DNA from: Candidatus Woesearchaeota archaeon
Lineage (GTDB): Archaea; Nanobdellota; Nanobdellia; Pacearchaeales; GW2011-AR1
Length of the DNA stretch: 36,715 nt
Assembly (NCBI GenBank): GCA_964357505.1
Contig: CAYHLN010000003.1
Span: 1 to 36,715, forward strand
Direction of reading: 5' to 3'
Made by a program: the position numbers and the translations under genes. The first letter of the stretch is position 1. Each line of letters opens with the position of its first letter. Under the pieces are notes generated by a model that was not told the DNA's origin, ran no database searches, and saw only the letters and a program-made list of their open reading frames with translations. Shown in pieces: positions 384 to 16,785 of the stretch.

Positions 384-467
384 GCGGGAATGCCGGAGCG
401 GTCAAACGGGCTGCGCTTAGGACGCAGTAGCTTAGTGCTTACAGAGGTTCGAATCCTCTTTCCCGCA
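384..467 (+). tRNA. tRNA-Leu (anticodon UAG), class II with long variable arm
   Basis: Hand-folded cloverleaf. Acceptor GCGGGAA/TTCCCGC; anticodon arm CTGCG-CTTAGGA-CGCAG; long variable arm TAGCTTAGTGCTTAC; T-arm AGAGG-TTCGAAT-CCTCT; discriminator A. No encoded CCA. Confidence 0.9.
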
Positions 468-471
468 CTTT

Positions 472-3400
472 TTATTGTTCATCAAAATCTCTAATATTTT
501 TTCCATTCAATTCTTGCAAAAATCGTAATGTATTCAAGTCATTCGGCGAGAGCTCACGATGCGCGCCACCAATATAGGTGCTAACATCCACAACGCCAGC
601 ATTAACAGAACCTAACACAACCGCGTTCCCTCCGGCAGATGAATCCGGATAGAACAAATTATAATCGCTATGAAGAAGAACCTGTGCAGCAGCTCCTTTC
701 TCACGTGCGTCTGCCCCCTCTCGGATAAAGAAGCGTGCGTGAATACCATTATAAAGAACATCATGATAAAGATATACTCGCGTCTGCGGATTTTGATAGC
801 TAATAAGAACAAAAAGAGTTGGCGTTACAGGAGCAACCATCGAAGGCGCTTCCGAACCCTGTGAAGACAGTATCGTGACTCCATCAAGAGTCGCGCCGTT
901 AAGTCTCAGGTAAAGATCTGGAATCAAATCCCTTGCGCTTGGTAATAGACGAATGGCATCGCCATTAACAGTGCCCAGTTCCTTATCTCTACCAAAACTT
1001 CCAGGAGCTACACCGAAGCCAAAAGAGAAAGGCACAGACAAAAAGACTCGATTATTATTCACATACACGCTAGTCCTCGTCTCGCCCTGGTAAACAAAAA
1101 TCTCTTGTGCAGGATCATACTCCCGCGCAAGCCGAAGTTCTGTGCCCAAGTCAACCGTAGCTTGCTCCCCATCAACAACCTGCTCATCACCATCAAAGAA
1201 GATCCCTTCGTCCGAAGTGCTGCTCGCTCCAGGCGCAACAGCTTGACTCTGCTGCACCGTGTTTACCAACAAATGCTCTACCAAATCAGCATACACCTGT
1301 GCCTTCAACAACACGAGGCGCGCACGCTGGTGATTCAAAAAGATCTTATCGAACTCAACATCAATCTGATTAACAAGAGCCTGTGCGTCCTGTAGCGTCA
1401 TACTCTCTCTCAAGCGCTCTCGTGCGTCGATCAGCTCATCAATCTTAGTCTTAGCAACATCATCACGATAAATAACGCCCTGGTCTGCAAGCGTATTCTT
1501 TTGGATTTCCTGCAGCTCCAAAAGAGTCGCATTCCGCGCTCCAATATTATTGTTGGTCAGAGCATTATCAACACTCTTCTTATCAAGCCAGCATCGCACT
1601 CCCGTATCACTACAGTACCCAACATCGATAAAGCGCGCTGGATCGCTCTCGCTACCCGGATTCCTCGTCGCACAAATTCGAACAATCCCACGATCGTACG
1701 TCTCGCCATAGAGCGTCTCTTCAACGCCGGCCTGTAGATTTGGCTGGATAAGCGCACCAACATTACCGCCACCAGAAACGCACGTTTGCTCAGAAGTAAT
1801 ACCCGTTCTCGTGAGCTCTTCTTGAGCAAAGCTATCTCGTAATTGGTTAACAGCAAAGCTTGTTGATACTTCTGTGAATCCACATTCTTCGCGATTGTTA
1901 ATGCGTACGCACAGCTGCTGATAGCCTTGAGGCGCAGTAAAGTCTTTCGTTTCAGTAGCAAACTGTCCTTTAGGTACGAAGCCCGTGGCAACCGTGATAA
2001 ACTGTGTTGTCTGATAGTACGATGTCTGTGGTGGATCTTTCAAGTAAATAGTATACGATACGCCTTGATCATTTCCTGCGAAGATGTGATAAAACGTCTT
2101 GTATTGCGACGTCGCAGGTACGGTGGCGCTAGTATAAGGAGTAGAACTAAACCAAGCGTGGAACTGAGCAGGGCTATCTGGTTCAACAAGTGCTTCAAAA
2201 GTCTTTGGACCCTTAGCAGAAATGAATGCCTTACAGAACGTACTGCCTGCCTCTTCAACCGAGCGAATCTTAAATGCTTCTAGTGAGTTAACCGCGTACG
2301 TCTGCGTGAAATAGTTTACCGAATCTTGAGCATGTTGCCAGGCTGCTTGTGTCGTCAAATATTCTCCTCCGCCACGCGGCGCTGTTTGTCCACTCGCAAC
2401 CTCAACAAGCTTAGGCAAGAGTACATTAGCAAGTGGTGCTGCTTGCCTCCAGAAGAACTCACAAGCATACACTGCAGTAATCTCATCACAAATACCAACA
2501 TACTTGCCGCTTTCAAGATTTTCCTCGAGACACAACTGGTGCGATTTCAAAATGGATACATAGCCATCAATGCCTGCCTTGATTCCGGTTAAACAAACCG
2601 GCACGTAAATACCCTCTCTAAAGTTAGGCAAGCACAGTAATGCACTGCCCACAATACCGGTCTGAATGACATCAGCAACAGGATAAGCGCCACCAAAATC
2701 ACATCGACTTGACGGACAAATGACCGGATCACAAACATTAAACAACAATCTGCACTCTTCAGGACTCATATAGTTCTGACACTGTGTTGCTGGAATATTT
2801 GCCGCTGGATCTCCAACAGGCAACGTCTCTGTCCCCGATAGCCCTCTAACTTGAATCACGCGCTTGCCATTCGCGTACTGCCGAGCAGCTTCCTGTACTG
2901 CCTCAACTCCTCTGTTGATAACTGCCTGTGCCTGTGTCTCCGTTAGTCCAGGGAATAAATCTAAGGGCTGTCCGGTATTCAAATTAACCTGCTGGCAAAC
3001 ATCATCTCCTAAGCTCTCAAAGAACTGTTCTTGCCCATTCTCTCCTACATTACAAATCCACACACTGGTAGGCCTGCCACTCGAATCAAAAGCACCAATA
3101 CCCCCAAATGCAGGAAGTATCTGTTTCGTGGCTGCATACCATCCTCGTTGTGTATCGAAAGGCACAATCGCCGGCTGCACTGGCTCAGTTTCATAATAGC
3201 GTACTCGTGGATTGAGATACTTATTGTTATAACTGACTTGGTCAAGCGAGCGTACTGCACCAAGGCCATACGTATCTAAGAATAGATCCTGATCGCTCAC
3301 CGCATAGTACATGCTATCTGAAGCATTGAAGAACAATACCTTCTCAGGTAAATAATTATCGCGCTCTTTGCGCAACCCAATCACGTACGTGCCGCCAGCA

Positions 3401-6198
3401 AATGCAGTTAGTGACCCGCCTTCCAACGTACGCACGCTCCCTTTAATAGGCACTCGCGCAACATGAGTGCTCGTAACAGCAAACTGAGACTTCAGTCCAC
3501 TATCACGAAGCTCCTCAGTAGTGCCAACAGAAACATATTTGATCGGGCCATCGTTCGCAGAGAGCGGCTCTCCGTAGAGCCCAGGCAGCCCACTTGATTC
3601 ATCTTTCCTCGAAGCCTCCAAGCTCCTACCGAGATCCGTACTCTCAGTTATGCTTCGTGCAATGCGCTTGAGCGACTCATTAGCAGCAACCTTCAATCCA
3701 GGAGAAGCATCAGCAGAATGAACAATATCTAAATTAAGCTTCATATCGCGAGCTTGGTCGTAGGTAAACTCTCCGCGATCGTATCCTCCAGACGCGTTTA
3801 CCAAATCGCTAACCCTTTGACCATTAATACTCGTCTCACCATAAGAGCCCAGTAGCTCTTGTCGCGCAAAGTCGTTTGCAGATTTGTTTCGATCAACAAT
3901 AGTCTCTCCAAAGACGCTCCCAACGCCCTCAACAGACTCGGAGTACTGAGATTCAATATCCCGTATACGTGTATTCTCAGCCTCAAGCAAGCGTTGCGTT
4001 GTGGCAACATCCCGATTAATATCATTACTCTTTTGATAATAGCATTCACCCACGTTCGCATACTCTCGCGCGCTCACAAGCCGCGCGCATTCAACATTCC
4101 AGCGTTCTCGCATAACTTTCTGTCGTGCGATCCCTTCTCCACTTAAGCCGCTCAAGAAGTTCTTTACCGTTAAGACGCCAGCAGTGGCAAAACATGCCGT
4201 CTTTAGCCCTTTGACTGCATTTCCAAGATTATTGGAAATACTTTCCCATTGTTTGATAGTCTTGTTAAGCTCCTCAAGCCGCTCCTTCGTCTTATCAGGT
4301 GTCAGCTCAAGCGCTCGCTTTTCCACACCAACAACAACGCTCACATTAGTCTCTGTCTCCAGGTTCTTCACGCTCGGCAAGATTCTGACTCGAGCCTGCT
4401 CACCAACAAAGATCTCATCCAAGATCAAGACACGTCCGCCACAAACCTCCTGACTGCCTCCCTGGTTTTGTACACGAGCATCACTACCAAGAGAGAATCG
4501 AGTAATACTTCCATTAGCACAAGCAACTCTACCTTGAACAGAATCAACAGTTAAAGACTCAAGAGTAATCGTTCCGAACTCCGTTGGGGTAGAGTTCCGG
4601 AGGGCTACTGGAATGCGATCAGAGGTTCCCTGCCAAACAAAGAAAGCAGATGGCTTCTGAGCAGGCTCGTTTACTTCAATTAAGCTAATAACTCGTGTTT
4701 CCCCATTGACAAACAGAGCCGCGCTTGCACGACTGGAATCAACAGAATAAAGTGAAGTCAGAGCAGATTCATAGCTCGCTCGATCAGGCGCGTCCGGATA
4801 CTCTTCAAGTAACTGTTGTGCAATAGTACTTGCCGTTCGCTCTTTTCCTAATCGTAGAGCCATACCAAATGATTCAGTCAAAGCAATCTCTCCATAAGAG
4901 CTACTTAAAGCACTATCGCGCTCCGCTGCATAGGAATCAGCTACGTCCTGATAAAAGTCAATACTTTTTTTGAATTCTCTCTCGATCTGATCTTCATACT
5001 GTCGATCAACAAGCCTCTCAGAAGAGAGCAAACGGATTTCCTCTCCACTAACGTTAAGCTGTTCCGCAGTTATCTGCCGATCGAGCGTCTTATTAATAGA
5101 ATAACGAACGCTCGTTGAGCCGCGCGCAGCTGGATAAGAATCTATAACTGTCCAGTTTACCGAGGCATCTGCAACCAATTGCACAACATCTCCACGCTCG
5201 AAGAGCCGTTGACTTAACGTAAGAGTGTACGACTTACCAGCGCAGGTAAGGCGCATGACATCTTGTTGTGCTTCCTTGCCAACTGCAGCAACAGTGCACT
5301 GATTCTCTAAGATCTTCATACCTTTGGTAACCTCAAAGACTTCATCATCAATTTGCACAACGGCAGAAGTCTCGGCAGGAATAAATCCATCATAAGCCAC
5401 TTTCAAGCCTGCCTGACAGTAAAGCCCGGGGAGGTAAAAGTCTCTCGATGTCTCACCACGATTCACGCGTATACTACTAACTTTACGCTCTCCCTGGTAG
5501 AAGCTGACAGTGGCAGTGTTTGCATCCGCATCTTCAAGTCTAACAAAGAACTTCCCTTGCCAGAAGCTCTGCTTATTACGAGTAGCCGCCCATTCATCAT
5601 CAGACTGTTCCTCTAGAAGAAATTCAGCTCGTCCAACGCCAAATGCATTATCGGCATTATAGTGAATACGTGCCTGTAACGTTACATTAACCTCATCGGG
5701 CAACTGCCGCTCATCTGACTGTTTCTTCATGACAACAACCAAATACCCAATGTTATTGATAATAGGATCCCCAAGCAACCGATCATGCGTTCGTAGAGCT
5801 GCGCGTGCAGGATGGAATCCACTTCCAACAATTTCCTCAGGATACGATCCACTAAAGGAAATGCTGTCAATAGATTTAATGTCAATTAAAGGATTAAACG
5901 TGAGCGCATCAAGCTGACAAAAGACCGGCACGTTCTGCTCTGCCAATAAATCACTTCGAACCACGGCCGGCTGGCAACCGCCAGGAGAAACCTGGATTAA
6001 AATGTCTTGACGATTAACACACTGCTCGGGATCCGTGAGAATAGGCCAGTATTGTTGGAGTTGGCCGCCAGAATAATAATTCTGTAGATCAGGTCGCACT
6101 ACCGAGCTATAACTCGAAGGAGCTCCACTAAAGGACGTATAAGCAAAGACGCTCCCCATCAGAAAGATAAAAACAACAAGACTTAAAGTAAGCTTCAT
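472..6198 (-). CDS. giant secreted protein, 1908 aa, no recognisable family
   Basis: Uninterrupted 5.7-kb ORF. The N-terminus MKLTLSLVVFIFLMGSVFA looks like a signal peptide, and I saw no other long hydrophobic segment. There is a Cys-dense core (CQNYMSPEECRLLFNVCDPVICPSSRCDF...) and a coiled-coil-like stretch (TPDKTKERLEELNKTIKQWESISNNL). Its ATG overlaps the stop of the upstream gene (ATGA at 6195-6198). Confidence 0.85.
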   Translation of the reverse strand: MKLTLSLVVFIFLMGSVFAYTSFSGAPSSYSSVVRPDLQNYYSGGQLQQYWPILTDPEQCVNRQDILIQVSPGGCQPAVVRSDLLAEQNVPVFCQLDALTFNPLIDIKSIDSISFSGSYPEEIVGSGFHPARAALRTHDRLLGDPIINNIGYLVVVMKKQSDERQLPDEVNVTLQARIHYNADNAFGVGRAEFLLEEQSDDEWAATRNKQSFWQGKFFVRLEDADANTATVSFYQGERKVSSIRVNRGETSRDFYLPGLYCQAGLKVAYDGFIPAETSAVVQIDDEVFEVTKGMKILENQCTVAAVGKEAQQDVMRLTCAGKSYTLTLSQRLFERGDVVQLVADASVNWTVIDSYPAARGSTSVRYSINKTLDRQITAEQLNVSGEEIRLLSSERLVDRQYEDQIEREFKKSIDFYQDVADSYAAERDSALSSSYGEIALTESFGMALRLGKERTASTIAQQLLEEYPDAPDRASYESALTSLYSVDSSRASAALFVNGETRVISLIEVNEPAQKPSAFFVWQGTSDRIPVALRNSTPTEFGTITLESLTVDSVQGRVACANGSITRFSLGSDARVQNQGGSQEVCGGRVLILDEIFVGEQARVRILPSVKNLETETNVSVVVGVEKRALELTPDKTKERLEELNKTIKQWESISNNLGNAVKGLKTACFATAGVLTVKNFLSGLSGEGIARQKVMRERWNVECARLVSAREYANVGECYYQKSNDINRDVATTQRLLEAENTRIRDIESQYSESVEGVGSVFGETIVDRNKSANDFARQELLGSYGETSINGQRVSDLVNASGGYDRGEFTYDQARDMKLNLDIVHSADASPGLKVAANESLKRIARSITESTDLGRSLEASRKDESSGLPGLYGEPLSANDGPIKYVSVGTTEELRDSGLKSQFAVTSTHVARVPIKGSVRTLEGGSLTAFAGGTYVIGLRKERDNYLPEKVLFFNASDSMYYAVSDQDLFLDTYGLGAVRSLDQVSYNNKYLNPRVRYYETEPVQPAIVPFDTQRGWYAATKQILPAFGGIGAFDSSGRPTSVWICNVGENGQEQFFESLGDDVCQQVNLNTGQPLDLFPGLTETQAQAVINRGVEAVQEAARQYANGKRVIQVRGLSGTETLPVGDPAANIPATQCQNYMSPEECRLLFNVCDPVICPSSRCDFGGAYPVADVIQTGIVGSALLCLPNFREGIYVPVCLTGIKAGIDGYVSILKSHQLCLEENLESGKYVGICDEITAVYACEFFWRQAAPLANVLLPKLVEVASGQTAPRGGGEYLTTQAAWQHAQDSVNYFTQTYAVNSLEAFKIRSVEEAGSTFCKAFISAKGPKTFEALVEPDSPAQFHAWFSSTPYTSATVPATSQYKTFYHIFAGNDQGVSYTIYLKDPPQTSYYQTTQFITVATGFVPKGQFATETKDFTAPQGYQQLCVRINNREECGFTEVSTSFAVNQLRDSFAQEELTRTGITSEQTCVSGGGNVGALIQPNLQAGVEETLYGETYDRGIVRICATRNPGSESDPARFIDVGYCSDTGVRCWLDKKSVDNALTNNNIGARNATLLELQEIQKNTLADQGVIYRDDVAKTKIDELIDARERLRESMTLQDAQALVNQIDVEFDKIFLNHQRARLVLLKAQVYADLVEHLLVNTVQQSQAVAPGASSTSDEGIFFDGDEQVVDGEQATVDLGTELRLAREYDPAQEIFVYQGETRTSVYVNNNRVFLSVPFSFGFGVAPGSFGRDKELGTVNGDAIRLLPSARDLIPDLYLRLNGATLDGVTILSSQGSEAPSMVAPVTPTLFVLISYQNPQTRVYLYHDVLYNGIHARFFIREGADAREKGAAAQVLLHSDYNLFYPDSSAGGNAVVLGSVNAGVVDVSTYIGGAHRELSPNDLNTLRFLQELNGKNIRDFDEQ

Positions 6199-8042
6199 GA
6201 AAAGACCTCCAAGCGCGCCTGCTGTACAGCTTCAAAGGCGTACTGTGCCTCTTCAAGACTTGATGGCGAAGGAACTCGTGGAATGTCAACGATAAGTCTG
6301 CCGCTTACTAAGTCAGATTCAAGTAAGTACGTTTCAACCGTTCCTCCTCCAATTAGCGCGTAATCAATCCTTGTTTCAGGAAGGGTAATATCAAAGCATT
6401 GCTCTCGTGTGCCGCCAAAGAGCCCCGCTATACCTGGCTTAGGCACAACCTGACACTCAGTCTTACTCGAAGCAGGAATAACAATGCTTGAATTACCATA
6501 TACATAGGCGGTCACGTTATAGAGACCCTCACTTAACATGACTGTGCTTGATTCTGGATAAGCAACGCTGGTGCTCCGATCAGCAGAAACAAATTGTACA
6601 ACCGCGCTTTCTCTCAGAGTGGCACCATCGCTGCGTAGCTCAAGCTGCACTTCATGCATCCGATCAAGGATAAGTTCTGCACTTGTTTCACTGTTTGAAG
6701 AGAACAGCACACTTCGCTCAGCATACCCCTCTGCTTGTGCATGCAAGATACCATTAACGCAAGCCGGTAAGGCAGTCTCAAGAACCGCATCTTCGCCTAC
6801 AATCTGCGTCGATCCAGCCTCACAAAGTGAATCAAAGCATTGGTAGCTAATGGTTGCTCCTACGGGATTGAGCTCGCGATCAAATGTCTTGATGGTCGCA
6901 GGTGCTGTCCTGAAAGCGCATACATCAGGTTGATCTGCAGGAGCCAATCCGATGCTACTTCCGGCACGCGGAAGATTGTTATCCACAACAGCAACAACCG
7001 GGAATTGAAAGAGCGTCACCCCATCATACAACTGGAACAACACGGGCACTCTAACATCGTAGACAAAATGGTACGGCACGTAACAGAAGCCCATCGCGCC
7101 CAGCGCAGGATCATTACCTACAGGATTCGCCCTCATGAGCTCATCATCGGCTGGCACAACTTCAATTGCGCTCGGCCATGCAGGATTATAAAGCAGTTGC
7201 ACAGGAACAGGCGTTTGTTGATCAACAACAAAGTAAGAATTATCATCTGTCGAAGTATAATAGGATCCTTTGAATTTAATCGCTCCGAAATTTGCCGACA
7301 ATCCTTCACGTATGTCGCTAACCACTTGTTGAGTTCGCCAAATCTTTGGCGCACAAGTCAAGAAAACACCATCAACCGGCGCGTAGCTCCGAAGGACATC
7401 AACAGCGTAACCCTCTAAGAAAGCGTCAGTTTTCTGCTTGGCATAGAGTGCCTGTGCAACCGTGTAAAATTTCCCAAAGTCGCTATCAACTTGAACGTTC
7501 TGACGCGCGAGAGAAGCACTACTTCCTTCACGCGCTGCACTAAATGTCTGCTCAACACTGACACGAACACTAGAGTCAAGAATAGTTACCGATGCCTCAG
7601 GTGCAGTCCGCTCAATCGTATATCCTTGCTCATAAAAATCGGAAAAATCACAGCCCTCAAGCTCGGCCTCAACAAAATCCTCGATCTCTCGCTCAATCTC
7701 TGATTGAGTAGGAACATTTTCCTTGAACAATCCATTCGCGCTCAGAGAATACCAATACTGGATAGGGCTGCCCAAAAAGTTAAGATGTGATGAGAAAGGC
7801 GCATAATCGCTTCCAGGAGCATAGACTCCGCTCTCAATCCTTCCTCCCTGAAGCCCCGCAAGTTCTAGAGCTCCTCTGGTGGCCAGCTCAATACATAATG
7901 CCTGTCGATCAAAGATCGGTTGAAATTCTCCGGCATCCGAACCTAAGGTAAGCCTTCCAGTGATTGCAAAAAAAGCAACAACCGCACCAACAAGCACAAT
8001 GGCTATGATCACAAAAACGGCAACCTGTCCTCGTTTACTCAT
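6195..8042 (-). CDS. 615-aa protein with an archaeal class III (type IV pilin-like) signal peptide
   Basis: The N-terminus MSKRGQ-VAVFVIIAIVLVGAVVAFF has a short basic n-region, then [KR]G, then a hydrophobic helix. This is the pattern cleaved by archaeal prepilin peptidases. I did not recognise the rest. It is translationally coupled to both neighbouring genes. Confidence 0.75.
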   Translation of the reverse strand: MSKRGQVAVFVIIAIVLVGAVVAFFAITGRLTLGSDAGEFQPIFDRQALCIELATRGALELAGLQGGRIESGVYAPGSDYAPFSSHLNFLGSPIQYWYSLSANGLFKENVPTQSEIEREIEDFVEAELEGCDFSDFYEQGYTIERTAPEASVTILDSSVRVSVEQTFSAAREGSSASLARQNVQVDSDFGKFYTVAQALYAKQKTDAFLEGYAVDVLRSYAPVDGVFLTCAPKIWRTQQVVSDIREGLSANFGAIKFKGSYYTSTDDNSYFVVDQQTPVPVQLLYNPAWPSAIEVVPADDELMRANPVGNDPALGAMGFCYVPYHFVYDVRVPVLFQLYDGVTLFQFPVVAVVDNNLPRAGSSIGLAPADQPDVCAFRTAPATIKTFDRELNPVGATISYQCFDSLCEAGSTQIVGEDAVLETALPACVNGILHAQAEGYAERSVLFSSNSETSAELILDRMHEVQLELRSDGATLRESAVVQFVSADRSTSVAYPESSTVMLSEGLYNVTAYVYGNSSIVIPASSKTECQVVPKPGIAGLFGGTREQCFDITLPETRIDYALIGGGTVETYLLESDLVSGRLIVDIPRVPSPSSLEEAQYAFEAVQQARLEVFS

Positions 8043-8169
8043 GTTTCAACCCCCGCTTCACTTTATCTTTAACAAGGTCGATAAGTTCACTATTAATATC
8101 TCTGTGTATAACGCCCTTAAATCGCTCCCAAAGTTTCTCATCCTCTATCAAAAGTAGATACTTCTTCAT
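8035..8169 (-). CDS. 44-aa ribbon-helix-helix-like small protein (below the ORF-track cutoff)
   Basis: Hand translation gives MKKYLLLIEDEKLWERFKGVIHRDINSELIDLVKDKVKRGLKHE. It has a beta-strand-like YLLLIED followed by two short helices, as in CopG/RHH proteins. Its stop overlaps the ATG of the 615-aa gene by 8 nt. A TATA box and a palindrome lie just upstream. Confidence 0.45.
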   Translation of the reverse strand: MKKYLLLIEDEKLWERFKGVIHRDINSELIDLVKDKVKRGLKHE

Positions 8170-8200
8170 CAATCACCTTCCAGTTTTTAGCAAAGTCGAA

Positions 8201-8208
8201 TATATAAA
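8201..8208 (-). promoter_or_regulatory. TATA box (TTTATATA on the minus strand) for the RHH/pilin-like/giant-protein operon
   Basis: The reverse complement of 8201-8208 is TTTATATA, 32-39 nt upstream of the ATG at 8169. Confidence 0.45.
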
Positions 8209-8213
8209 GATTG

Positions 8214-8250
8214 CTTACTAACTTCATAAGTTAGTAAGTTACTTAGTAAG
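8214..8250. promoter_or_regulatory. palindromic operator-like array of TTACTAA/TTAGTAA half-sites
   Basis: A perfect inverted repeat CTTACTAACTT-cat-AAGTTAGTAAG spans 8214-8238. It is followed directly by the near-palindrome TTACTTAGTAAG (8239-8250). Confidence 0.5.
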
Positions 8251-8304
8251 AGAAAGTATAACCTAAGGTTTATTTACTAAGATAAGACAAGAATAGTCAG
8301 GAAC

Positions 8305-8670
8305 TTATTTACATAGTAAATTAATACATTCACATCTTTTAGCAGACCTAGAAACAAAATCCTCACAAAGATTGCTCATCTCTGCGTTCCTCTTATCAAG
8401 TTCGGTATCAACTTTCGCATTTCTATTTGTGCAAGCAGGATAACATCCGCTAGGGCTATGTATATCCTTAAGCATGCAATCATCATTATTATCACATGAA
8501 TAGACTATTGAAGCAAAATATTCCGCCCAAGATTCGAGTGAACCTTCCTTTTCAGATGACCTTTCACTAAAAAAATAAATTCCAAAACCGACAAGCAAAA
8601 GAGCAATAATAAACGCCTGCCTTTTCAAAGGCGAGAAATTACTCCAAAAAGAAGTTATATATGAAAACAT
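8305..8670 (-). CDS. small membrane-anchored Cys-rich protein, 121 aa
   Basis: One hydrophobic helix (AFIIALLLVGFGIYFF) is followed by a domain with 8 Cys. Its start lies 1 nt after the stop of the 693-aa gene, so the two are probably co-transcribed. Confidence 0.6.
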   Translation of the reverse strand: MFSYITSFWSNFSPLKRQAFIIALLLVGFGIYFFSERSSEKEGSLESWAEYFASIVYSCDNNDDCMLKDIHSPSGCYPACTNRNAKVDTELDKRNAEMSNLCEDFVSRSAKRCECINLLCK

Positions 8671-8671
8671 T

Positions 8672-10753
8672 TTATCCGCTCTTCAGCTTAAATGTTAAAG
8701 GGTCAGAGGTCCCGTCATTCGCACAAGAAGCCTTACCATTCCCAGTTAGAACTCTAAAAGTTCCATCAATTCTCCAATCACTTCTTCCAGAAACTCCATT
8801 GTCATTGTAATATTTGCGAGTAGCGTTAGCACAAAAATCCTGCGAAGGAATCTTTCCAGTACCTGCATCATTCCCTAATGTAGTGCAAGTCTTTCCAAGA
8901 CTATCATTAATAATCCAGCAGTCTGGTTGCCCTGCACTATTAGAATCTCTGCCGAAATTTACATCTATAGACAAAGGTAGAGGCGCCGAAGACAAATCGC
9001 TTATAGTAAATGTCCCATCGCTCTCATCGCATACATTTGCAACATTATCACATACTCTTATTCTATATTCGGTTCCAGCCAAAGAACCCTCATAAGACAA
9101 AGTTTGTAAAGGATAATTATCTTCGCTATAATAACTGTTAAATATAAGACTTCTTACCAAAACTCTATTCTCTCCCTGAACCAAAAAAACTGATATCCTG
9201 TCAGGTCGTCCTCTTGAACCACTCCACCTAATTCTATCTCCATAATATTTGTAAGTCCCGTAATAGTCTGTAGTTTTATACAAAGTCTCTCCCCCATTAG
9301 GATAAATAACACTAATGCTCACGGGGGTTCCCGTTGTTGTTCCAGTAGTTGTAGTAGTTGCTGTTCCAGTTGTCGTTCCCGTTGGCGGTGTAGTCGTAGG
9401 TGTAGCCACCGGAGGAGTTGTAGCTATGGGAGCAGTTCCAGCACTTGCAAGAAAAATCGAAATTAGATTAGAACTTGCATCATTTGCACAAGAAGCACGT
9501 CCATTGCTACCTTGAACAACAGAAGACTTAACAACTTTCCAATTTCTAGAACCTCCAATGTTATTTTTATTATAATGATTAAATGTAGCATTAATGCAAA
9601 ACTCTTGAGAAGGAATGCCTGGGGCATTATCAAGAAGCCCAATACATTGTATGTCGCTAGAATCGTTAATAATCCAGCAGTCTGGTGCTTTTTTACCATT
9701 TGAATCTCTACCAACGTTCACGCGAACAAAAGTAATGTTAGTATGATTAACGCTTAATGCTAATTGTGCAGTTCGCAATAAAGCCGCTCGTTCAGCTACA
9801 TCTGATATACCAAGTGCAGCAAGCACTGTAGAAACAACCGCTGCAAAAAAAGGAACCTCATTAGCTGTAGTTCCCGCAGTAGTCGCTGGTGCCGTTGTAG
9901 ATGGTGTTGTAGTTGTTCTCGGAACAATTGTAACAAGGAAATATAATGAGTCATAGAAAGTTCCTGCTTGAGTTACATCAACCCTATAGTTTAAGACACA
10001 TTGGGGAGAACCTTCAGGCACAGAAATCACAATCGTTCTTTCCACCGTATCTGGTCCTGGAGCTATCCTAACACTACCGCTCCCTCCCTGAATAATAAAA
10101 CTATTTGCACTAGCCTGAGTTAACTGACATCCAGACTCAATTTCCGCAGCAGAAACAGCATATCTAAAATCTTGAGCTCCATTTACTCCAGCTAAAATAT
10201 TCTTAATAGCAAATCGGATATTAAAATTCTCTCCAGACCAAATAACAGCCGATCTGTCAGGCAGATAAACTACAGTTTTTTTGCTATTATCCGCGTTAAA
10301 CAAACTATTAATTTGAACCTTGGCATTATTATCGATTAACTCAATTGCAGAAGTTGTGGTCTGCTCTGTTCCCGTGTTTGCCGTTGTGGAAGTTGTAGTC
10401 GTCGTCTGAATAGTACAAGCCCCATCTAAACATTTTTCAACACACCTAACGCTATCCACGATGCGCTGCCCCTGTACACAATAGTTCTCTTTGAGCGTTC
10501 GTGTGTTGGTGCAAGTATCTACATACGTTGCAGAGACAGAATAAGCACCACTTCGCAAGCGATAAGTAGTAACCGTTCCTGCAATAGTAGAATAGTATCC
10601 GTTATCGCTATCTTGACACCTAGGAATACTGTTCGAAAAAGCAATATTATCATACACATCTCCTTGTATCACTCGTCCGGTAAAAGAAAACGCAGAAACA
10701 CTAAAAATACTCAAGAAAAAAACAAGCGCAGCAAAAAACGCAAACCCCTTCAT
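8672..10753 (-). CDS. secreted modular surface protein, 693 aa, with Thr-rich linkers and duplicated Cys domains
   Basis: Signal peptide MKGFAFFAALVFFLSIFSVSAFS. An N-terminal CxDSDxG...GAC module spans aa 45-113. There are three Thr/Pro-rich linkers. Two about 90-aa repeats (VN[VF]GRDSN..PDCWIINDS..IPSQ[ED]FC.NAT..SCAND) lie at aa 345-435 and 597-690. Aa 478-586 resemble a Kre9/KNH-like Ig-type domain (IRW..., YRIRVCD, GTFTI). Confidence 0.8.
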   Translation of the reverse strand: MKGFAFFAALVFFLSIFSVSAFSFTGRVIQGDVYDNIAFSNSIPRCQDSDNGYYSTIAGTVTTYRLRSGAYSVSATYVDTCTNTRTLKENYCVQGQRIVDSVRCVEKCLDGACTIQTTTTTSTTANTGTEQTTTSAIELIDNNAKVQINSLFNADNSKKTVVYLPDRSAVIWSGENFNIRFAIKNILAGVNGAQDFRYAVSAAEIESGCQLTQASANSFIIQGGSGSVRIAPGPDTVERTIVISVPEGSPQCVLNYRVDVTQAGTFYDSLYFLVTIVPRTTTTPSTTAPATTAGTTANEVPFFAAVVSTVLAALGISDVAERAALLRTAQLALSVNHTNITFVRVNVGRDSNGKKAPDCWIINDSSDIQCIGLLDNAPGIPSQEFCINATFNHYNKNNIGGSRNWKVVKSSVVQGSNGRASCANDASSNLISIFLASAGTAPIATTPPVATPTTTPPTGTTTGTATTTTTGTTTGTPVSISVIYPNGGETLYKTTDYYGTYKYYGDRIRWSGSRGRPDRISVFLVQGENRVLVRSLIFNSYYSEDNYPLQTLSYEGSLAGTEYRIRVCDNVANVCDESDGTFTISDLSSAPLPLSIDVNFGRDSNSAGQPDCWIINDSLGKTCTTLGNDAGTGKIPSQDFCANATRKYYNDNGVSGRSDWRIDGTFRVLTGNGKASCANDGTSDPLTFKLKSG

Positions 10754-10798
10754 AATAATACAAATAAAATAATATATATATATAGTTATCGAACAGGC

Positions 10799-11143
10799 TT
10801 AACGCGCTACCGAGTACGCCTCATGAGGAATGAGCAAAGGCGAAGGGGCACTCACCTCAATAACGGTATTGTCCAAGCAAATATGCTCTGCCCTTCCAAG
10901 GTGCAGCGCTTGTTGAAGAACAGCACCCACATCATTACTAAGCCCATACCTATTCATTAATAATCGAAAAAAATGATTCGTGCCAGCAAGAGAAATATCA
11001 AAAGATGTGGACCAGACCTTGTCTCCTATGCCACGTTCAGGTGACTGTCGATACACGTGCCAGAGCAAACCCTGCACAAAATCGTACACTTGCACAGAAC
11101 GTCCATTCGTGACAATAACCTGTTTGCTTACTTCCCCATACAT
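10799..11143 (-). CDS. hypothetical protein, 114 aa
   Basis: ATG-initiated ORF with ordinary composition and no recognisable motif. It begins 5 nt downstream of the 3' end of tRNA-Val on the same strand. Confidence 0.45.
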   Translation of the reverse strand: MYGEVSKQVIVTNGRSVQVYDFVQGLLWHVYRQSPERGIGDKVWSTSFDISLAGTNHFFRLLMNRYGLSNDVGAVLQQALHLGRAEHICLDNTVIEVSAPSPLLIPHEAYSVAR

Positions 11144-11148
11144 GGTAA

Positions 11149-11220
11149 TGGCCCTGCGCGGAATCGAACCGCGGCTTCATCCACGTCAAGGATACGGGCT
11201 AACCGTTACCCCACAAGGCC
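11149..11220 (-). tRNA. tRNA-Val (anticodon GAC)
   Basis: The reverse complement folds as follows. Acceptor GGCCTTG/CAGGGCC (one G-U); D-arm GGGT..GCCC; anticodon arm TATCC-TTGACGT-GGATG; T-arm CGCGG-TTCGATT-CCGCG; discriminator A. TTTTTATA (11244-11251, minus strand) lies 24-31 nt upstream. Confidence 0.9.
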
Positions 11221-12363: not shown

Positions 12364-13461
12364 TCATCTTCTTCTTTTATTTGTCTTCTTAGGCCTTACA
12401 AGAAAATAAACCAATAACCCAATTACCAAAACCGCAAGAATGACAACAACTGGCGAGCCATAGTTGCCTGGAGGTGAAAACTGAGGTGTTGCAGTATTAG
12501 GAATCCTTGAAACTTGACAAGTGTTCCAACCATTACACTGTGAGTTGCAGGCCTGCGTTCCGGAACCTTGTTTAGTTGTGCAAGCCCTTGAGTCTCTATC
12601 GCAGATTTCGGACCCCTCTCTAACTCCGTTACCACAAACAGAAACGGGAGCGGGACTACAAGCCCCATTATTACAACCATAAGGGCAATCATAATTGACA
12701 AAGGCATACCCTGGAGGCCAAGTTATACCATTACAAGTAGTCTCAATAAGTCGATTGCTATTAGCGCTGTCAAGACAAATGTCAGAAGCAATAACAGGCT
12801 GGTTGGCCCCATTATTATAACTGATATTCGTAGCATTAGTAGAACCATAGGTATTGTAGTTTAGACCACCATCGCTATCAACACAAGAAAGTGGGGCAAC
12901 TGGGACTGTAATGCTAACAATAGGGAAAAAATTATTTACATAATTACTTTCTGGGTAAAGAGTAGTCACTCCCGGAAAGTCTCGATCATAAATACCGAAT
13001 CCAGTCGTAGCTCCAAAAAGATTCCCAACAGAAAACGAACTATCTTTGGTAGTTGTTACTATAATACTAGACCCAGAGATAAAACCATTCGCACCAAAGT
13101 AAAAATTTTCACGCTCAAACAAATGCGGAAGTATAGGATAACTCGGGGTACCAATTACACTACTTGAAGGGTATCTGCCCCACCCCACTCCTGTCAACGA
13201 ATTTCCCTCTGCGAACCAAACAATTAAATTATATTGATATCCTCCTTCAAGGTTTTCTATAGTCGGCCCATTATTCCTAATTGTAGCAATAAGAGTAATA
13301 TTCCCCGATTCATTTAAAACTTGCAAATTGGTTACAGCAATATCATAGTTTCCGAAAACGGTATTAGGATCTGGACCCAAAGCACTAACAACTCCCATCG
13401 ACAAAACCAAAGAAAGTCCAAAAATCGCCAGAAAGAAAAATCCAAACAATAATCTTTTCAT
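12364..13461 (-). CDS. membrane-anchored surface protein (CARDB-like domain, Cys modules, C-terminal TM anchor)
   Basis: I started it at MKRLLFGFFFLAIFG (ATG 13461), which has a TATA-like ATATATAT 20-28 nt upstream. The track ORF extends to 13509. DIAVTNLQVLNESGNITLIATIRNNG is CARDB-like. A CVDSDGG...CNNGAC module spans aa 209-284 of the track ORF. CGNGVREGSEICD resembles a myxococcus-type Cys repeat. The C-terminus has a TM helix plus KKTNKRRR. Confidence 0.75.
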   Translation of the reverse strand: MKRLLFGFFFLAIFGLSLVLSMGVVSALGPDPNTVFGNYDIAVTNLQVLNESGNITLIATIRNNGPTIENLEGGYQYNLIVWFAEGNSLTGVGWGRYPSSSVIGTPSYPILPHLFERENFYFGANGFISGSSIIVTTTKDSSFSVGNLFGATTGFGIYDRDFPGVTTLYPESNYVNNFFPIVSITVPVAPLSCVDSDGGLNYNTYGSTNATNISYNNGANQPVIASDICLDSANSNRLIETTCNGITWPPGYAFVNYDCPYGCNNGACSPAPVSVCGNGVREGSEICDRDSRACTTKQGSGTQACNSQCNGWNTCQVSRIPNTATPQFSPPGNYGSPVVVILAVLVIGLLVYFLVRPKKTNKRRR

Positions 13462-13570
13462 GCCCCTCTTAAAATTTCCATATATATATCTTTCTCTAAT
13501 TTGCCACAAACAAATTTCCTTCCCGATTAAAACTGTAAACTATTTAAGCAGTTAAACAATATCTAAATGA

Positions 13571-14653
13571 ATGAAAAAATCATACATAATAATTTCAGTA
13601 TCTATAGTAATTCTTATTGCGATTATAATCATCATAAGTCAAAAAAGTCCAACTTTTTCTCCAAACAATTCAAATTCCGTATGCACGGAAATCGAATATA
13701 ACAACCCAAACGCTATAAATCTCCTCTACGTCACAGATAAGCAAATAGCGCAAGAATATTCAGATTATTTTTTCTCAACCTCCCCATTTAAAGAAAATAA
13801 AGAGTCATTTAATGTCTATGCTCTGGAAAATTATCAGCCTACATGTAAAAGATATAAGGGTATTGCCCTATTCTGTTATTCCCGTGATTTAATCAATGAA
13901 GCATCAAAATGCCCTAATGATTATATCATAGTTCCTAAAGAAGAGCAAGCATCAATAAGAAGCTCAAGTTATGATAGAGTTATTAGTTTGAATACAAACC
14001 ATGAATCTTCCGTATTGTTACATGAATTCGGACATTCATTCGCAAGTCTATCCGAAGAATATGCTCCATCAAATCTACCCTCAGACTCGCCAAACTGCAA
14101 AATTTCATGCGAGCAATTTCAAAATAGTTGCTTTGAAGGCTGTTCAAAATCAAATTACAAACGCTCAATTGAAAATGGAGTAATGCGCACTCTCTCCTCA
14201 AGCGATTACGGAGAATTTAATAAAAACTTAATAACAAATCTTATACAAAAAAGATTCTCAACAATAACAAGCAATGTAATTTCAGAAAAAGAATCGTGCA
14301 ACGACCACATTTATCTAATCGAACTAACTCCTTCAGAAGATTCTTTGACTATCTCTTCAATAGCACTAACTGAAGGTTGCATATCAAATCAAAACGGAGA
14401 TTACTCTTACCAAACGGAAACCTCATCAGGTGAAATAATATCCCGAGCTTCCTTCTCTCCAACAGAAATATATACAGACGCTCCAGGGGTAAATCTTGAT
14501 CTTGAAGGCGAAACTTTCACAAGCGATGAACCAATTTATCTAACTGTCCCTGCAACAAATTTAGACAGCACAATAACAATTCAAAACGAGCAAGAGCAAA
14601 TAATAGCCTCAGGGACCCTTGATAGATTAGGAGCAACACCATGTATAATATGA
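13571..14653 (+). CDS. M64 (IgA-peptidase)-like zinc metallopeptidase with N-terminal TM anchor
   Basis: HEFGHSFASLSEEY matches the M64 signature HExxHxxxxLxDEY. N-terminal TM helix IIISVSIVILIAIIIIIS. Confidence 0.6.
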   Translation: MKKSYIIISVSIVILIAIIIIISQKSPTFSPNNSNSVCTEIEYNNPNAINLLYVTDKQIAQEYSDYFFSTSPFKENKESFNVYALENYQPTCKRYKGIALFCYSRDLINEASKCPNDYIIVPKEEQASIRSSSYDRVISLNTNHESSVLLHEFGHSFASLSEEYAPSNLPSDSPNCKISCEQFQNSCFEGCSKSNYKRSIENGVMRTLSSSDYGEFNKNLITNLIQKRFSTITSNVISEKESCNDHIYLIELTPSEDSLTISSIALTEGCISNQNGDYSYQTETSSGEIISRASFSPTEIYTDAPGVNLDLEGETFTSDEPIYLTVPATNLDSTITIQNEQEQIIASGTLDRLGATPCII

Positions 14654-16536: not shown

Positions 16537-16785
16537 ATGATTACAACAATCCAGCTAAATGAAAATGTGAAAAACGCCTTAGATAGGATGAAAAATAATA
16601 AAGAAACCTATGAAGATATAATTGTTAACTTAATGACTTATTTTGAGAAACAAAAAAGAAAACAAGAGGAACTATTGATCGAAGGCTGTAAAGAAATGTA
16701 TGATGATATGTTAAGTATAGAAAAGGAATGGGAAGGAACTTTAATGGACGGCTTAGACAAAAATGAAAAATGGAACGCATTATAA
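16537..16785 (+). CDS. putative antitoxin partner of MazF (RHH-like N-terminus)
   Basis: 82 aa. TIQLNENVKNALDRMK..ETYEDIIVNLM looks like a strand plus two helices. It overlaps the mazF-like gene by 16 nt. Confidence 0.55.
   Translation: MITTIQLNENVKNALDRMKNNKETYEDIIVNLMTYFEKQKRKQEELLIEGCKEMYDDMLSIEKEWEGTLMDGLDKNEKWNAL

Follow-up and report, generated by a model that had tools for sequence, protein, structure and literature searches.

Three consecutive genes of a Candidatus Woesearchaeota archaeon, which encode a 44-aa mini-protein, a 615-aa protein and a 1908-aa giant protein, were found to form a real, translationally coupled unit of about 7.7 kb, and this trio is a core operon throughout the lineage. 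The explanation we favour, tentatively, is that it encodes a probably self-regulated, pilin-anchored two-subunit cell-surface spike belonging to the lineage core genome. The abundant but uncultured Pacearchaeota and Woesearchaeota have tiny genomes and are presumed to be attached to other cells, and the operon is a concrete candidate for how they touch or exploit a partner. None of its parts matched anything with known function in Pfam, NCBIfam, the PDB or Foldseek searches, and no description of the operon, its anchor, its regulator or the repeat tract at its promoter was found in the literature searched. Three "unknown" families that are specific to the lineage and set its members apart from every other archaeon would gain a probable function from the proposed role.

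Organization and conservation of the operon

The analysed stretch of DNA, called the window below, comprised positions 1-36,715 of contig CAYHLN010000003.1 (assembly GCA_964357505.1). The features needed here are listed below, with the evidence for each in brackets.

384-468, plus strand: tRNA-Leu(tag), convergent, ending 3 nt from the giant stop codon (ARAGORN)
472-6198, minus strand: giant subunit, 1908 aa, Sec signal, no anchor, pI 4.8, 30 Cys (translation, composition)
475-1224, minus strand: giant residues 1659-1908, a hypervariable C-terminal orphan tail presumed to be the distal, exposed end (tail comparisons)
1549-3201, minus strand: conserved core of the giant, residues 1000-1550 (conservation 0.54-0.82; median identity 60.5%)
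5299-6048, minus strand: giant residues 51-300, a conserved N-terminal domain and candidate site of docking on the base (column conservation 0.61-0.81)
6195-8042, minus strand: 615-aa putative base subunit with class III signal, hydrophobic helix and ectodomain (translation, homologs, AlphaFold2)
7962-8042, minus strand: class III (type IV pilin-type) signal and hydrophobic helix (predicted cleavage between KRG and QVAVFVIIAIVLVGAVVAFFAI)
8035-8169, minus strand: mini-protein gene, 44 aa, cytoplasmic (ORF and 72 orthologues)
8173-8181, minus strand: Shine-Dalgarno-like GGAAGGTGA ahead of the mini-gene (sequence)
8201-8208, minus strand: TATA box TTTATATA, 39 nt before the mini-gene ATG (sequence and positional conservation over 72 loci)
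8211-8250, minus strand: (STWA)10 tetranucleotide-phased tract of 40 nt, probable operator (repeats, 72-locus comparison)
11149-11220, minus strand: tRNA-Val(gac), ancestral upstream boundary (ARAGORN)

In the window the mini-gene overlaps the 615-aa gene by 8 nt (ATGAGTAA), and the 615-aa gene overlaps the giant gene by 4 nt (ATGA at 6195-6198). A translationally coupled three-gene operon had been proposed from these overlaps in an earlier reading of the sequence alone, together with a search for co-occurrence and for interruptions of the giant ORF in relatives. The proposal held in the 81 related loci that were fetched for comparison. The giant gene was located directly 3' of the 615-aa gene on the same strand in 79 of them and the other two were contig ends, which means that homologs were not scattered and were co-localised in every locus that can be judged. 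The 615/giant overlap of 4 nt recurred in 45 of these loci and a mini/615 overlap of 4 or 8 nt in 40. No interruption was seen in any locus readable whole, the giant being an intact single-frame ORF in 55 of 55 loci with a complete and unmasked giant.

At least 548 GTDB species representatives carried the trio. The genes recurrently found beside it in the 81 loci encoded GINS, TFB, FtsY/SRP54, S3Ae, L44e, S8e and apgM. The operon is part of the core genome of archaea of the Pacearchaeota/Woesearchaeota type (GTDB Nanoarchaeota). It is thus present in more than 500 species, never broken, and takes a large share of small genomes, for a pair of proteins predicted to be exposed at the surface. In agreement with the earlier reading, no assembly ATPase, platform protein or prepilin peptidase of type IV pili (T4P) was encoded among the window ORFs. 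No pilus machinery was found beside the operon in any of the 81 loci, and neither a T4P ATPase nor a TadC/FlaJ platform family recurred near it.

The 615-aa protein as a putative membrane base

The first residues of the 615-aa protein, MSKRGQ, lead into a hydrophobic stretch (peak Kyte-Doolittle value 3.27), which agrees with a FlaFind-type rule ([KR][GA] before the cut, [AQ...] after it, then about 20 hydrophobic residues). The class III prepilin-type signal that had been suggested from this single N-terminus proved to be family-wide. The motif [KR][GA]Q[VLI] with a hydrophobic helix was present in 111 of 120 family members, behind leaders of 4-42 residues, compared with only 2 of 120 giants. 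All 111 motif-bearing members had G or A at -1 and 110 had Q at +1; the hydrophobic helix spanned 22 residues, with R or K at +23. A class III motif in the 615-aa family and a Sec signal alone in the giant provide the anchor logic of the proposed spike.

At least 712 homologs of the 615-aa protein were found, with 45-68% identity over the full length. The protein itself had no match at E <= 1 in Pfam or NCBIfam, sets which we take to contain the archaeal pilin N-terminal models (Pilin_N, archaeal flagellin N-terminal-like domain), and pilin families were absent from the matches of 70 family members. Its AlphaFold2 model (mean pLDDT 84.5) predicted a helix at residues 3-30, a linker at 28-34 with pLDDT below 50, a second helix at 40-63, and then an ectodomain in which an alpha/beta domain (about residues 85-360) precedes beta-sandwich domains (379-614). 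With this model Foldseek returned only generic matches to tandem beta-sandwich surface proteins, among them SlaB (8qox_B; probability 0.99, TM-score 0.12-0.16). The low-confidence linker appears in the model to split the hydrophobic helix from the ectodomain instead of leaving a single pilin helix, a point to be set against the spike reading.

The giant protein: a conserved body and an orphan tail

The sequence-only reading had described the giant as a protein with a signal peptide only and a Cys-dense core, and this description was borne out. A Sec-type signal is present, no further transmembrane segment was found (no hydrophobic segment beyond the signal exceeds Kyte-Doolittle 1.42), and 10 of the 30 Cys are located between residues 1140 and 1246. 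Long helices were predicted at 634-750 and 1549-1600. The absence of a recognisable domain was likewise confirmed, since neither large protein matched Pfam or NCBIfam. For the giant this includes SLT, and the precomputed Pfam entries were empty for 118 of the 120 giant homologs listed, the two exceptions being other families. PDB sequence and profile searches gave no matches. The fold search that had been proposed for the large proteins was also run, and no Foldseek match explains either of them; for the giant, modelled over residues 401-1600 only (pLDDT 70.7), nothing in PDB or BFVD matched the fold at E <= 1e-3.

At least 450 giant homologs (40-69% identity) were found, the core occurred in 1047 clusters at 50% identity, and family lengths ranged from 1.7 to 2.8 kaa. 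The N-terminal domain had a median identity of 55.8% across 79 loci. In the same loci, median identities of housekeeping proteins were 54.9 for S3Ae, 52.5 for SRP54, 51.1 for FtsY and 51.4 for GINS, so the body (core) of the giant is conserved at housekeeping level, at or above these four proteins. The AlphaFold2 model places in this core a disulfide-rich helical bundle (about residues 1146-1327), which contains two conserved semi-hydrophobic Gly-rich helices (1171-1217), and a beta-sandwich (1345-1445). Many polar residues (D, E, R, N, H) of the core are invariant, besides Cys, Gly and Pro.

The C-terminal tail shows the opposite behaviour. In a relative that is 69% identical over giant residues 1-1658, similarity in the tail was undetectable. 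Tails ranged from 106 to 1081 aa, only 235 of 7140 pairs had detectable similarity, and a search of 5.8 billion proteins with the tail gave no match at E <= 1e-3. About 1,600 conserved extracellular residues that end in a tail diverged beyond recognition among close relatives are an unusual signature.

The mini-protein and the tetranucleotide tract at its promoter

The ORF of the mini-gene begins at a TTG (45 aa), and the ATG at 8169 yields the 44-aa protein MKKYLLLIEDEKLW... with a basic, K/R/G-rich tail. Residues M1, K2, Y4, L5, L6, L7, E9, W14, F17, K18 and N26 are invariant in 72 orthologues. Majority-base frequencies at the three codon positions were 0.83, 0.92 and 0.57, which shows selection at the protein level. 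The promoter was also conserved over the 72 loci: the TATA box has the family consensus AAGaAAGATTTATATA with a purine-rich BRE-like stretch immediately upstream, and its spacing to the ATG is mostly 37-62 nt. AAGAGG or GGTGA motifs occupy the matching Shine-Dalgarno position in related loci.

Ending 2 nt upstream of the TATA box is a tract that reads CTTA CTAA GTAA CTTA CTAA CTTA TGAA GTTA GTAA GCAA, with weaker copies reaching about 8281. When an (STWA)8 pattern with at most 3 mismatches was searched in the 36.7-kb window, 8211-8250 was the sole match (0.00 expected from 100 shuffles). A tract of (STWA)10-12, about 40-48 bp, stands in register with BRE/TATA in 72 loci, and the half-site density was 22.3 per kb upstream of the mini-gene versus 0.55 per kb elsewhere in the loci, a 40-fold difference. 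The element had been taken for a palindromic operator array beside a TATA box. The TATA box and a dedicated cis element do exist, but the element is really a tetranucleotide-phased (STWA)n tract, and its palindromes (perfect inverted arms CTTACTAACTT / AAGTTAGTAAG at 8214-8238 and additional TTAGTAAG / TTACTAAG copies) result from this pattern. The tract is missing exactly where the mini-gene is missing. Seven loci, which may represent only one to a few loss events, lack both, and there a plain promoter precedes the 615-aa gene and the giant. The tract is a dedicated cis element gained and lost together with the mini-gene.

The mini-protein is probably a DNA-binding autoregulator. Ribbon-helix-helix (RHH) repressors that act on tandem short repeats include MetJ (8-bp metboxes), omega (7-bp heptads), CopG and Arc. 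With these the system shares a protein of about 45 aa, first in its operon, a beta-alpha-alpha pattern (KKYLLLI / EDEKLWEKFK / DINSEIIELIKEKV), an Arc-like "NSEI" opening of helix 2, and a contiguous short-repeat array beside the promoter, here (STWA)10-12 adjoining BRE/TATA at the mini-protein's own promoter. It differs from them in its 4-nt STWA period over about 40-48 bp, in a wholly hydrophobic strand, and in standing outside the RHH superfamily by profile. The earlier label "RHH-like" found no backing in profile searches beyond the beta-alpha-alpha pattern: Pfam Arc matched 1 of 24 members (E 0.14; 12.5 bits, below the cutoff of 20.4), a PDB profile search found no RHH protein, and hhalign against Arc, Mnt and CopG sequences gave a probability of 10.8%, covering only helix B, which resembles that of Arc (NSEI...).

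Comparison with known systems

Several described systems resemble the operon in part. The minor-pilin/PilY1 (PilC) tip complexes and the archaeal PilY-like or "S-layer-like" partners (Makarova et al. 2016, PMC4858521) also pair a prepilin-type protein with a much larger Sec-secreted, anchor-less, Cys-rich non-pilin, and a presumed surface exposure or adhesion role is common to both. Homology to them is lacking, however. The present operon has a single pilin-like gene, is unlinked to ATPase, platform and peptidase genes, and its partner of 1.7-2.8 kaa has a body conserved at the level of ribosomal proteins. SlaA/SlaB of Sulfolobales (PDB 8qox; PMC10903991) likewise consist of a co-transcribed large anchor-less outer subunit and a smaller anchored subunit of stacked beta-sandwiches, both acidic, but sequence homology was not detected and their folds resemble the present ones only generically. 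Furthermore, SlaB is anchored by a C-terminal transmembrane segment and coiled coil, whereas the helix of an N-terminal class III signal takes this place here; the present pair is far more conserved and has a probable dedicated regulator. The sugar-binding proteins of the Sulfolobus bindosome have in common large globular ectodomains exported with pilin-type signals and held in the membrane by the remaining helix. They differ from the 615-aa protein in having a solute-binding fold and no giant partner, and in belonging to a different lineage. Within Pacearchaeota and Woesearchaeota, unknown families were grouped in Module 98 and Module 222, including lytic-transglycosylase proteins of up to 3000 aa (fam00969), and a role in cell-cell interaction was proposed for large extracellular proteins without an assigned function (Castelle et al. 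2021, PMC8204110). The lineages and the large extracellular proteins are shared with the present case, but the giant, unlike fam00969, has no transglycosylase domain.

Proposed mechanism and alternative explanations

In the favoured spike reading, the 615-aa protein would be made with its class III signal, and a prepilin peptidase encoded elsewhere would cut it after [KR]G. The 22-residue helix would then retain it in the membrane, or as part of a short pilin-like stem, with the alpha/beta and beta-sandwich ectodomain as the base. The giant, exported by Sec without an anchor of its own, would use its conserved N-terminal and core parts to dock on this base, in a ratio that we propose to be roughly 1:1 because translation is coupled. 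Its hypervariable tail would point outward and meet other cells, most plausibly the host, or viruses. The 44-aa protein may bind cooperatively along the (STWA)10-12 tract adjoining BRE/TATA and so set operon transcription; negative autoregulation, in which TFB/TBP would be occluded, is the most likely mode. The physical 615/giant complex, the processing of the signal, the binding to DNA with its sign, and the biological role are parts of a proposal. The operon offers experimenters defined targets: an antigen for labelling or enrichment, the 44-aa protein and 40-bp tract for binding, and the domains for structures. A host attachment device may be its function, an idea helped by the hypervariable orphan tail and complicated by the housekeeping-level conservation of the body and by the absence of linkage to pilus machinery. 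In particular, 1,600 conserved extracellular residues would be unusual for an adhesin facing diverse hosts and would better fit a self-assembling or catalytic machine.

Other explanations have to be weighed against the spike. With an appreciable minority chance, the pair could be a two-component S-layer or cell coat, in which a membrane stalk (the 615-aa protein) bears a lattice-forming canopy (the giant), as in SlaB/SlaA but with an N-terminal pilin-type anchor. An operon that is universal, essentially single-copy and in core synteny would suit this, as would the strong consensus BRE/TATA, the Shine-Dalgarno sequence and equimolar coupling. The pairing of a small anchored stacked-beta-sandwich subunit with a large anchor-less acidic one, and SlaB among the fold matches at probability 0.99, point the same way, and lattice contacts could account for a conserved body with a variable outward face. 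However, neither protein has sequence or fold homology to SlaA or other S-layer proteins, and the SlaB match (TM-score 0.12-0.16) is that of a generic beta-sandwich. Fast evolution is usual in archaeal S-layer proteins, in contrast to the 60% identity here, the level of a ribosomal protein, and N-glycosylation sequons are not enriched in the giant (13 versus 12.2 expected). To our knowledge, a dedicated operator and regulator are not usual features of S-layer genes, and we know of no precedent for S-layer anchoring through a class III signal. Bacterial minor pilins carry PilY1/PilC, and the 615-aa protein could similarly be a large modular minor pilin that carries the giant as a non-pilin adhesin at the tip of a true type IV pilus, with the machinery encoded elsewhere. 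The conserved class III signal and the variable tail agree with this. T4P ATPase, platform and PilA loci are also reported in these lineages (CpaF, TadC, PilA and FlaF in Pace- and Woesearchaeota; PMC11291902), and large Sec-secreted Cys-rich partners in archaeal T4P loci were interpreted as PilY-like adhesins (PMC4858521). But the operon adjoins pilus genes in 0 of 81 loci, only one pilin-like gene is present instead of a minor-pilin set, Pfam finds no DUF2341, PilY1 or vWA domain in the giant, and the model predicts a flexible linker after the hydrophobic helix instead of a continuous pilin alpha-1 helix. We regard a pilus tip as rather improbable.

The conservation of the extracellular core, which equals that of ribosomal and SRP proteins and extends to many invariant polar residues, could also reflect a mechanistic task other than adhesion. 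The pair would then act, for example, in membrane contact, pore formation or fusion, or as an enzyme complex that scavenges lipids or other building blocks from a host, with the Cys-stapled bundle and its two semi-hydrophobic Gly-rich helices as the active part. These lineages presumably rely on hosts for lipids, the helices at 1171-1217 are conserved within the bundle, and the operon, at the cost of a large share of small genomes, is never lost or broken. Against it, no catalytic or transport domain was detected, and the fold searches pointed to no fusogen, pore-forming toxin or lipid-transfer protein (diphtheria toxin matched with a probability of just 0.13). A disulfide-stapled bundle speaks against large refolding, and the hydrophobicity is under the usual transmembrane threshold, which leaves such a machine improbable. 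The mini-protein, for its part, could, instead of being a transcription factor, serve the 615-aa precursor in the cytoplasm as a chaperone or targeting factor, with the tract bound by another factor or acting through DNA structure alone. RHH homology is unsupported, a ribbon that reads DNA would not usually have two hydrophobic faces, as the predicted N-terminal strand YLLLI does, and a 4-nt period is an unusual operator geometry. Nevertheless, the tract and the mini-gene are missing as a pair from loci that retain the 615-aa gene and the giant, which argues that the mini-protein is dispensable for the complex and tied to the tract. Its basic tail, its Arc-like helix B (NSEI...) and the near invariance of both protein and tract make a non-regulatory role very improbable. 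A bolder reading, to which we give a small chance, is that the 615-aa protein and the giant constitute an unrecognised extracellular machine of new fold that defines the Pacearchaeota/Woesearchaeota lineage. Its body would be ribosome-tight because of a mechanical or catalytic step at the envelope of another cell (membrane contact, a pore or bridge, lipid uptake), an exchangeable tail would set partner specificity, and a new mini-repressor would polymerise on the tetranucleotide-phased operator. If true, the most species-rich, still uncultured DPANN groups would use this apparatus to interact with their hosts.

Boundaries and base composition of the locus

The tRNA-Leu gene downstream of the giant was also present in related loci and forms a conserved downstream boundary. 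The higher GC content of the operon had been noticed in the sequence-only reading. The contrast with the neighbouring genes is real: GC was 0.46-0.49 over 1-8 kb of the window and 0.37-0.41 in the following 3 kb, and the operon family was GC-richer than its flanks in 56 of 56 loci. Nevertheless, the operon is not special in this respect. Its GC3 of 0.40-0.41, compared with 0.26-0.30 in the neighbouring 121-, 693-, 381- and 360-aa genes, equals that of core genes (0.40-0.48 in S3Ae, SRP54, FtsY and aIF2-alpha), and its higher GC is therefore no mark of a special block. The contrast in the window is due to the AT-rich neighbours, which sit in a 2.9-kb low-GC3 insert that parts tRNA-Val from the operon. 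This tRNA gene was located about 60-130 nt upstream of the tract in 10 of 11 loci checked, and about 2 kb upstream of it in L002, the closest relative.

Gene organization of the operon

Three overlapping ORFs on the minus strand had been claimed in an earlier sequence-only reading of the window, and their coordinates and junctions bear this out. The operon and its promoter signals are as follows:

8035-8169, minus strand: ORF of the mini-gene, 44 aa counted from the ATG
6195-8042, minus strand: ORF of the 615-aa gene
472-6198, minus strand: ORF of the giant gene, 1908 aa
mini-gene/615-aa gene junction, minus strand: 8-nt overlap, reading ATGAGTAA
6195-6198, minus strand: 615-aa gene/giant gene junction, reading ATGA
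8201-8208, minus strand: TATA box, TTTATATA, 39 nt ahead of the first ATG
between the TATA box and the first ATG, minus strand: ribosome-binding site, GGAAGGTGA

The window is archaeal DNA, and its other genes include those for ribosomal proteins S3Ae and L44e, SRP54, FtsY, aIF2-alpha, a RIO kinase and a TrmB regulator. No pilus assembly ATPase, platform protein or prepilin peptidase was found in a gene search of the window, in agreement with the sequence-only reading. Searches of Pfam, NCBIfam, PHROGs and PADLOC with all three operon proteins gave nothing usable; for the two large proteins, in which that reading could recognise no domain, Pfam and NCBIfam were likewise empty. PDB searches by sequence and by family profile gave chance-level matches only.

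Distribution and genomic setting

At least 450 homologs of the giant were found, with 40-69% identity over about 85-94% of its length; none has a protein name, and their source MAGs carry the labels Nanoarchaeota or Pacearchaeota. For the 615-aa protein the number of full-length homologs (603-666 aa) is at least 712, and a scan of one genome per GTDB species gave a relative in at least 548 species, with titles naming Pacearchaeota, Woesearchaeota or Nanoarchaeota. An exhaustive HMMER search with the core of the giant (residues 1000-1550) returned 1047 clusters at 50% identity, 908 of them with E <= 1e-30, and in these matches the core invariably begins about 1000-1300 residues into proteins of 1.7-2.8 kaa. 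Castelle et al. 2021 (PMC8204110) probably included the three families in their unnamed modules specific to Pace-/Woesearchaeota. Literature searches brought up no account of the operon, nor of its anchor logic, of the contrast between body and tail in the giant or of the candidate tetranucleotide operator.

From at least 548 related genomic loci, the 80 best were fetched and compared. The giant gene lies directly downstream of the 615-aa gene on the same strand in 79 of the 81 loci of the set, the remaining two being contig ends. The 4-nt overlap between these two genes was seen again in 45 loci, an overlap of 4 or 8 nt between the mini-gene and the 615-aa gene in 40. Wherever the giant is complete and free of masking, in 55 loci, it reads as one unbroken frame. 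Because the genes stay together and the giant stays intact across these loci, neither of the genomic observations named beforehand as contrary to the operon reading, scattered homologs and an interrupted giant, was made.

The operon is flanked by housekeeping genes (GINS, TFB, FtsY/SRP54, S3Ae, L44e, S8e and apgM), and the frame tRNA-Val(gac) - operon - tRNA-Leu(tag) recurs across the loci. This setting is core-genome synteny, neither a mobile island nor a pilus locus, and with such neighbours a connection of the operon to pilus machinery by genomic context was ruled out. A viral origin was also ruled out, as tblastn queries with the giant core and the 615-aa protein matched none of 50,697 phage records.

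Two contigs of the same MAG (CAZVKQ01; loci L050 and L051) each carry a 615-aa gene followed by a giant gene, which may reflect a paralogous second operon or a strain mixture in the bin. Small secreted proteins are encoded upstream on the operon strand at about 9201 in locus L062 and about 327 in locus L075, each of two families recurring in about 12 loci. Members of one family (about 197 aa) have a C-terminal transmembrane segment and are encoded directly upstream of the operon; those of the other (about 158 aa, beta-rich) are encoded about 0.6 kb upstream. Both families are absent from the window, and they could be accessory components of the operon.

The 615-aa protein

The 615-aa protein of the window starts with MSKRGQ, followed by a strongly hydrophobic helix. 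The pattern [KR][GA]Q[VLI], a 22-residue hydrophobic stretch and then R/K was found in 111 of 120 family members behind leaders of 4-42 residues, and the nine members without it are truncated gene calls or single substitutions at -2. The retention of G at -1 and Q at +1 whatever the leader length would be expected of a class III (prepilin-type) signal and not of a plain signal anchor, so that the signal proposed from the window's protein is predicted for the family.

In the AlphaFold2 model (mean pLDDT 84.5), a helix (3-30) is followed by a low-confidence linker, a second helix (40-63), an alpha/beta domain to about 360 and stacked beta-sandwiches (379-614). Foldseek returned only generic tandem beta-sandwich surface proteins (Gram-positive pilins, SpyCEP, SlaB), all with TM-scores <=0.15 on the query; the SlaB match had a probability of 0.99 but a TM-score of just 0.12-0.16. 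Curated pilin models in Pfam and NCBIfam did not match the protein, and Pfam gave nothing usable, pilin models included, for 70 family members. The family thus has a predicted pilin-type signal, which does not by itself make it a filament subunit. T4P machinery is present in Pace-/Woesearchaeota lineages (PMC11291902), so a prepilin peptidase is presumably present in them as well.

The giant protein

The giant carries a Sec-type signal without any further membrane segment, long helices and 30 cysteines, 10 of which fall within residues 1140-1246. The conservation profile shows strongly conserved blocks at residues 51-300, 600-700 and 1000-1550, and variable parts, namely the linkers at 300-400 and 850-950 and the end from about 1650. 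The median identity of the core was 60.5% and that of the N-terminal domain (residues 51-300) 55.8%, compared in the same loci with 54.9% for S3Ae, 52.5% for SRP54, 51.1% for FtsY, 51.4% for GINS and 68.5% for L44e. It is unusual for an extracellular disulfide-rich domain to evolve as slowly as ribosomal and SRP proteins. Large secreted, Cys-rich partners often accompany archaeal T4P loci, where they have been read as adhesins or S-layer-like proteins (PMC4858521).

As modelled with AlphaFold2 (pLDDT 70.7, pTM 0.41), residues 401-1600 form a patchwork in which helical bundles and very long helices are combined with two beta-sandwiches and, at about 1146-1327, a helical bundle stapled by cysteines. 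A fold search of this model against PDB and BFVD gave no match at E <= 1e-3, whole-chain Foldseek being insensitive for multidomain models, and family profiles of the giant found nothing in PDB. As the fold searches with the two models offered no support, a fusogen, a toxin, a tail fibre and a lipid-transfer protein were all given up as readings. Both large proteins are acidic, and N-glycosylation sequons are not enriched (13 versus 12.2 expected).

The end of the giant behaves differently from its conserved body. The closest relative shares 68.6% identity over residues 1-1658, beyond which similarity is undetectable. Tail length ranges from 106 to 1081 aa, and similarity is detectable in only 3.3% of tail pairs. 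A search with the tail alone (residues 1659-1908) against 5.8 billion proteins was empty, and its sensitivity is uncertain because not even the window's own protein was returned. One short motif, of the form h-x-x-L-[ND]-G-[AK]-x-[IL]-x-G, is found in many otherwise unlike tails, right at the C-terminus or close to it; in the giant of the window, for example, it lies around residues 1770-1785 and 1890-1908. It is the source of the sole detectable tail similarity, a common module of about 90 aa at 28-32% identity. Tail swapping between lineages is weakly supported by this module, and hypervariability is claimed here but cassette exchange is not.

The mini-protein and its upstream tract

Except for a basic K/R/G tail at its end, which varies, the mini-protein is almost invariant (MKKYLLLIEDEKLWEKFK..DINSEI...). 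Conservation at codon positions 1, 2 and 3 (0.83, 0.92 and 0.57) shows that its gene is translated and maintained by selection. A beta-alpha-alpha pattern and an Arc-like NSEI opening helix 2 suggest a ribbon-helix-helix (RHH) fold, as had been noticed earlier, but profile tests (Pfam on 24 mini-proteins, PDB, and Arc/Mnt/CopG comparison sequences) gave no support for RHH membership, and the fold is treated here as putative.

Upstream of the mini-gene, the sequence-only reading had described a palindromic operator array. The repeats are real, with perfect inverted arms of 11 nt at 8214-8238 and further TTAGTAAG / TTACTAAG copies; their basic unit, however, is the tetranucleotide STWA (S = C/G, W = A/T), and the palindromes come with it automatically, since (STWA)n, read as its reverse complement, gives the same pattern displaced by a single base. 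The TATA-aligned consensus of 72 loci, TTAcTTAcTTAcTTAgTTAgTTAcTTAgTTAgTTAATAAGaAAGATTTATATA, consists of 10-12 STWA units in fixed register with BRE/TATA, and the spacings of GTWA units in these loci are multiples of 4. The tract at 8211-8250 is the sole match in the window to (STWA)8 with <=3 mismatches, where none is expected by chance, and half-site density in the 200 nt upstream of the mini-gene is 40x that elsewhere in the loci. A general promoter element was ruled out, since the fetched loci contain only three other clusters, one of which is the operon's own promoter further upstream.

The mini-gene and the tract are both missing in seven loci (L005, L009, L020, L028, L038, L065 and L075) that keep the giant and have a plain promoter, AAAAAGGTTTATATA / AAAAAGGTTTATATATT, located about 45 nt ahead of the start of the 615-aa gene; in L038 a tRNA-Val lies directly upstream. 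These seven may represent one to a few loss events. Apart from two further loci masked by N runs at this place, no locus had one element alone. The joint absence ties the mini-protein to the tract, and since the seven loci keep the 615-aa gene and the giant, the mini-protein is dispensable for the structural pair; a dedicated regulator would be expected to behave in this way. The end of the tract lies 2 nt from the TATA box, so that a protein bound to it would mask the BRE; from this we infer that the mini-protein represses the operon.

Base composition and neighbouring genes

The operon had also been described as more GC-rich than the neighbouring surface-protein genes. This contrast holds, but the operon itself is not unusual: its GC3 (0.40-0.41) equals that of the core genes of the window (0.40-0.48), whereas that of the neighbouring surface-protein genes is 0.26-0.30. 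The GC of the operon exceeds that of its flanks in all 56 of 56 loci, by 3.6 points on average. Codon positions 1 and 2 account for its higher overall GC, because the proteins contain much Ala, Gly and Val and little Lys. Horizontal transfer as the source of the higher GC was ruled out on these grounds. The odd block is formed by the neighbouring genes and not by the operon:

8300-11145: low-GC3 block (2.9 kb, GC3 0.26) between tRNA-Val(gac) (11149-11220) and the operon promoter, with ORFs of 121 aa (Cys-rich membrane protein), 693 aa (secreted protein with Thr-rich linkers) and 114 aa
12364-14653: two low-GC3 (0.26-0.30) surface/secreted genes, composition unlike core genes

In most relatives tRNA-Val lies about 60-130 nt upstream of the promoter, while in the window these 2.9 kb of ORFs stand between them, and the block looks like an insertion beside tRNA-Val. 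Within 12364-14653, a 381-aa protein combines a Sec signal and Cys-rich modules with a transmembrane segment and basic tail at its C-terminus, and a 360-aa protein has a weak Peptidase_M64 match.

Proposed model and alternatives

The best-supported model combines a base anchored by a pilin-type signal, a giant forming shaft and tip, and a mini-regulator. The 615-aa protein would be the base, held through its signal and carrying the anchor-less giant, whose conserved body would form the shaft and whose hypervariable tail the exposed tip. Base and giant would be produced in coupled amounts under the control of the dedicated mini-regulator.

Several roles could be served by such an assembly. It could mediate adhesion to a partner cell; an interaction organelle is favoured by the variability of the tail and by the regulator. 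Universality, coupling and the conservation of the body, on the other hand, keep in play both a two-component coat and a conserved extracellular machine. The operon could also encode a true pilus tip, against which stand the missing pilus linkage and the presence of just one pilin-like gene. The operon is filed here as a class III-signal surface complex with a small autoregulator, and that it represents a new type of host-interaction machine is considered improbable.

Other features of the window

Four further features were recorded:

16770-17117: MazF/PemK-type toxin ORF (Pfam E 3.5e-34), between the S3Ae gene and tRNA-Thr
30-350: LAGLIDADG-domain ORF, a short fragment adjoining tRNA-Leu (384-468)
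35461-36633: LAGLIDADG-domain ORF of 390 aa, overlapping a predicted tRNA-Arg(gcg) at 36557-36628
21831-22157 and 33941-34324: two paralogous genes for pterin-4a-carbinolamine dehydratase, in the same 36-kb window of a small genome
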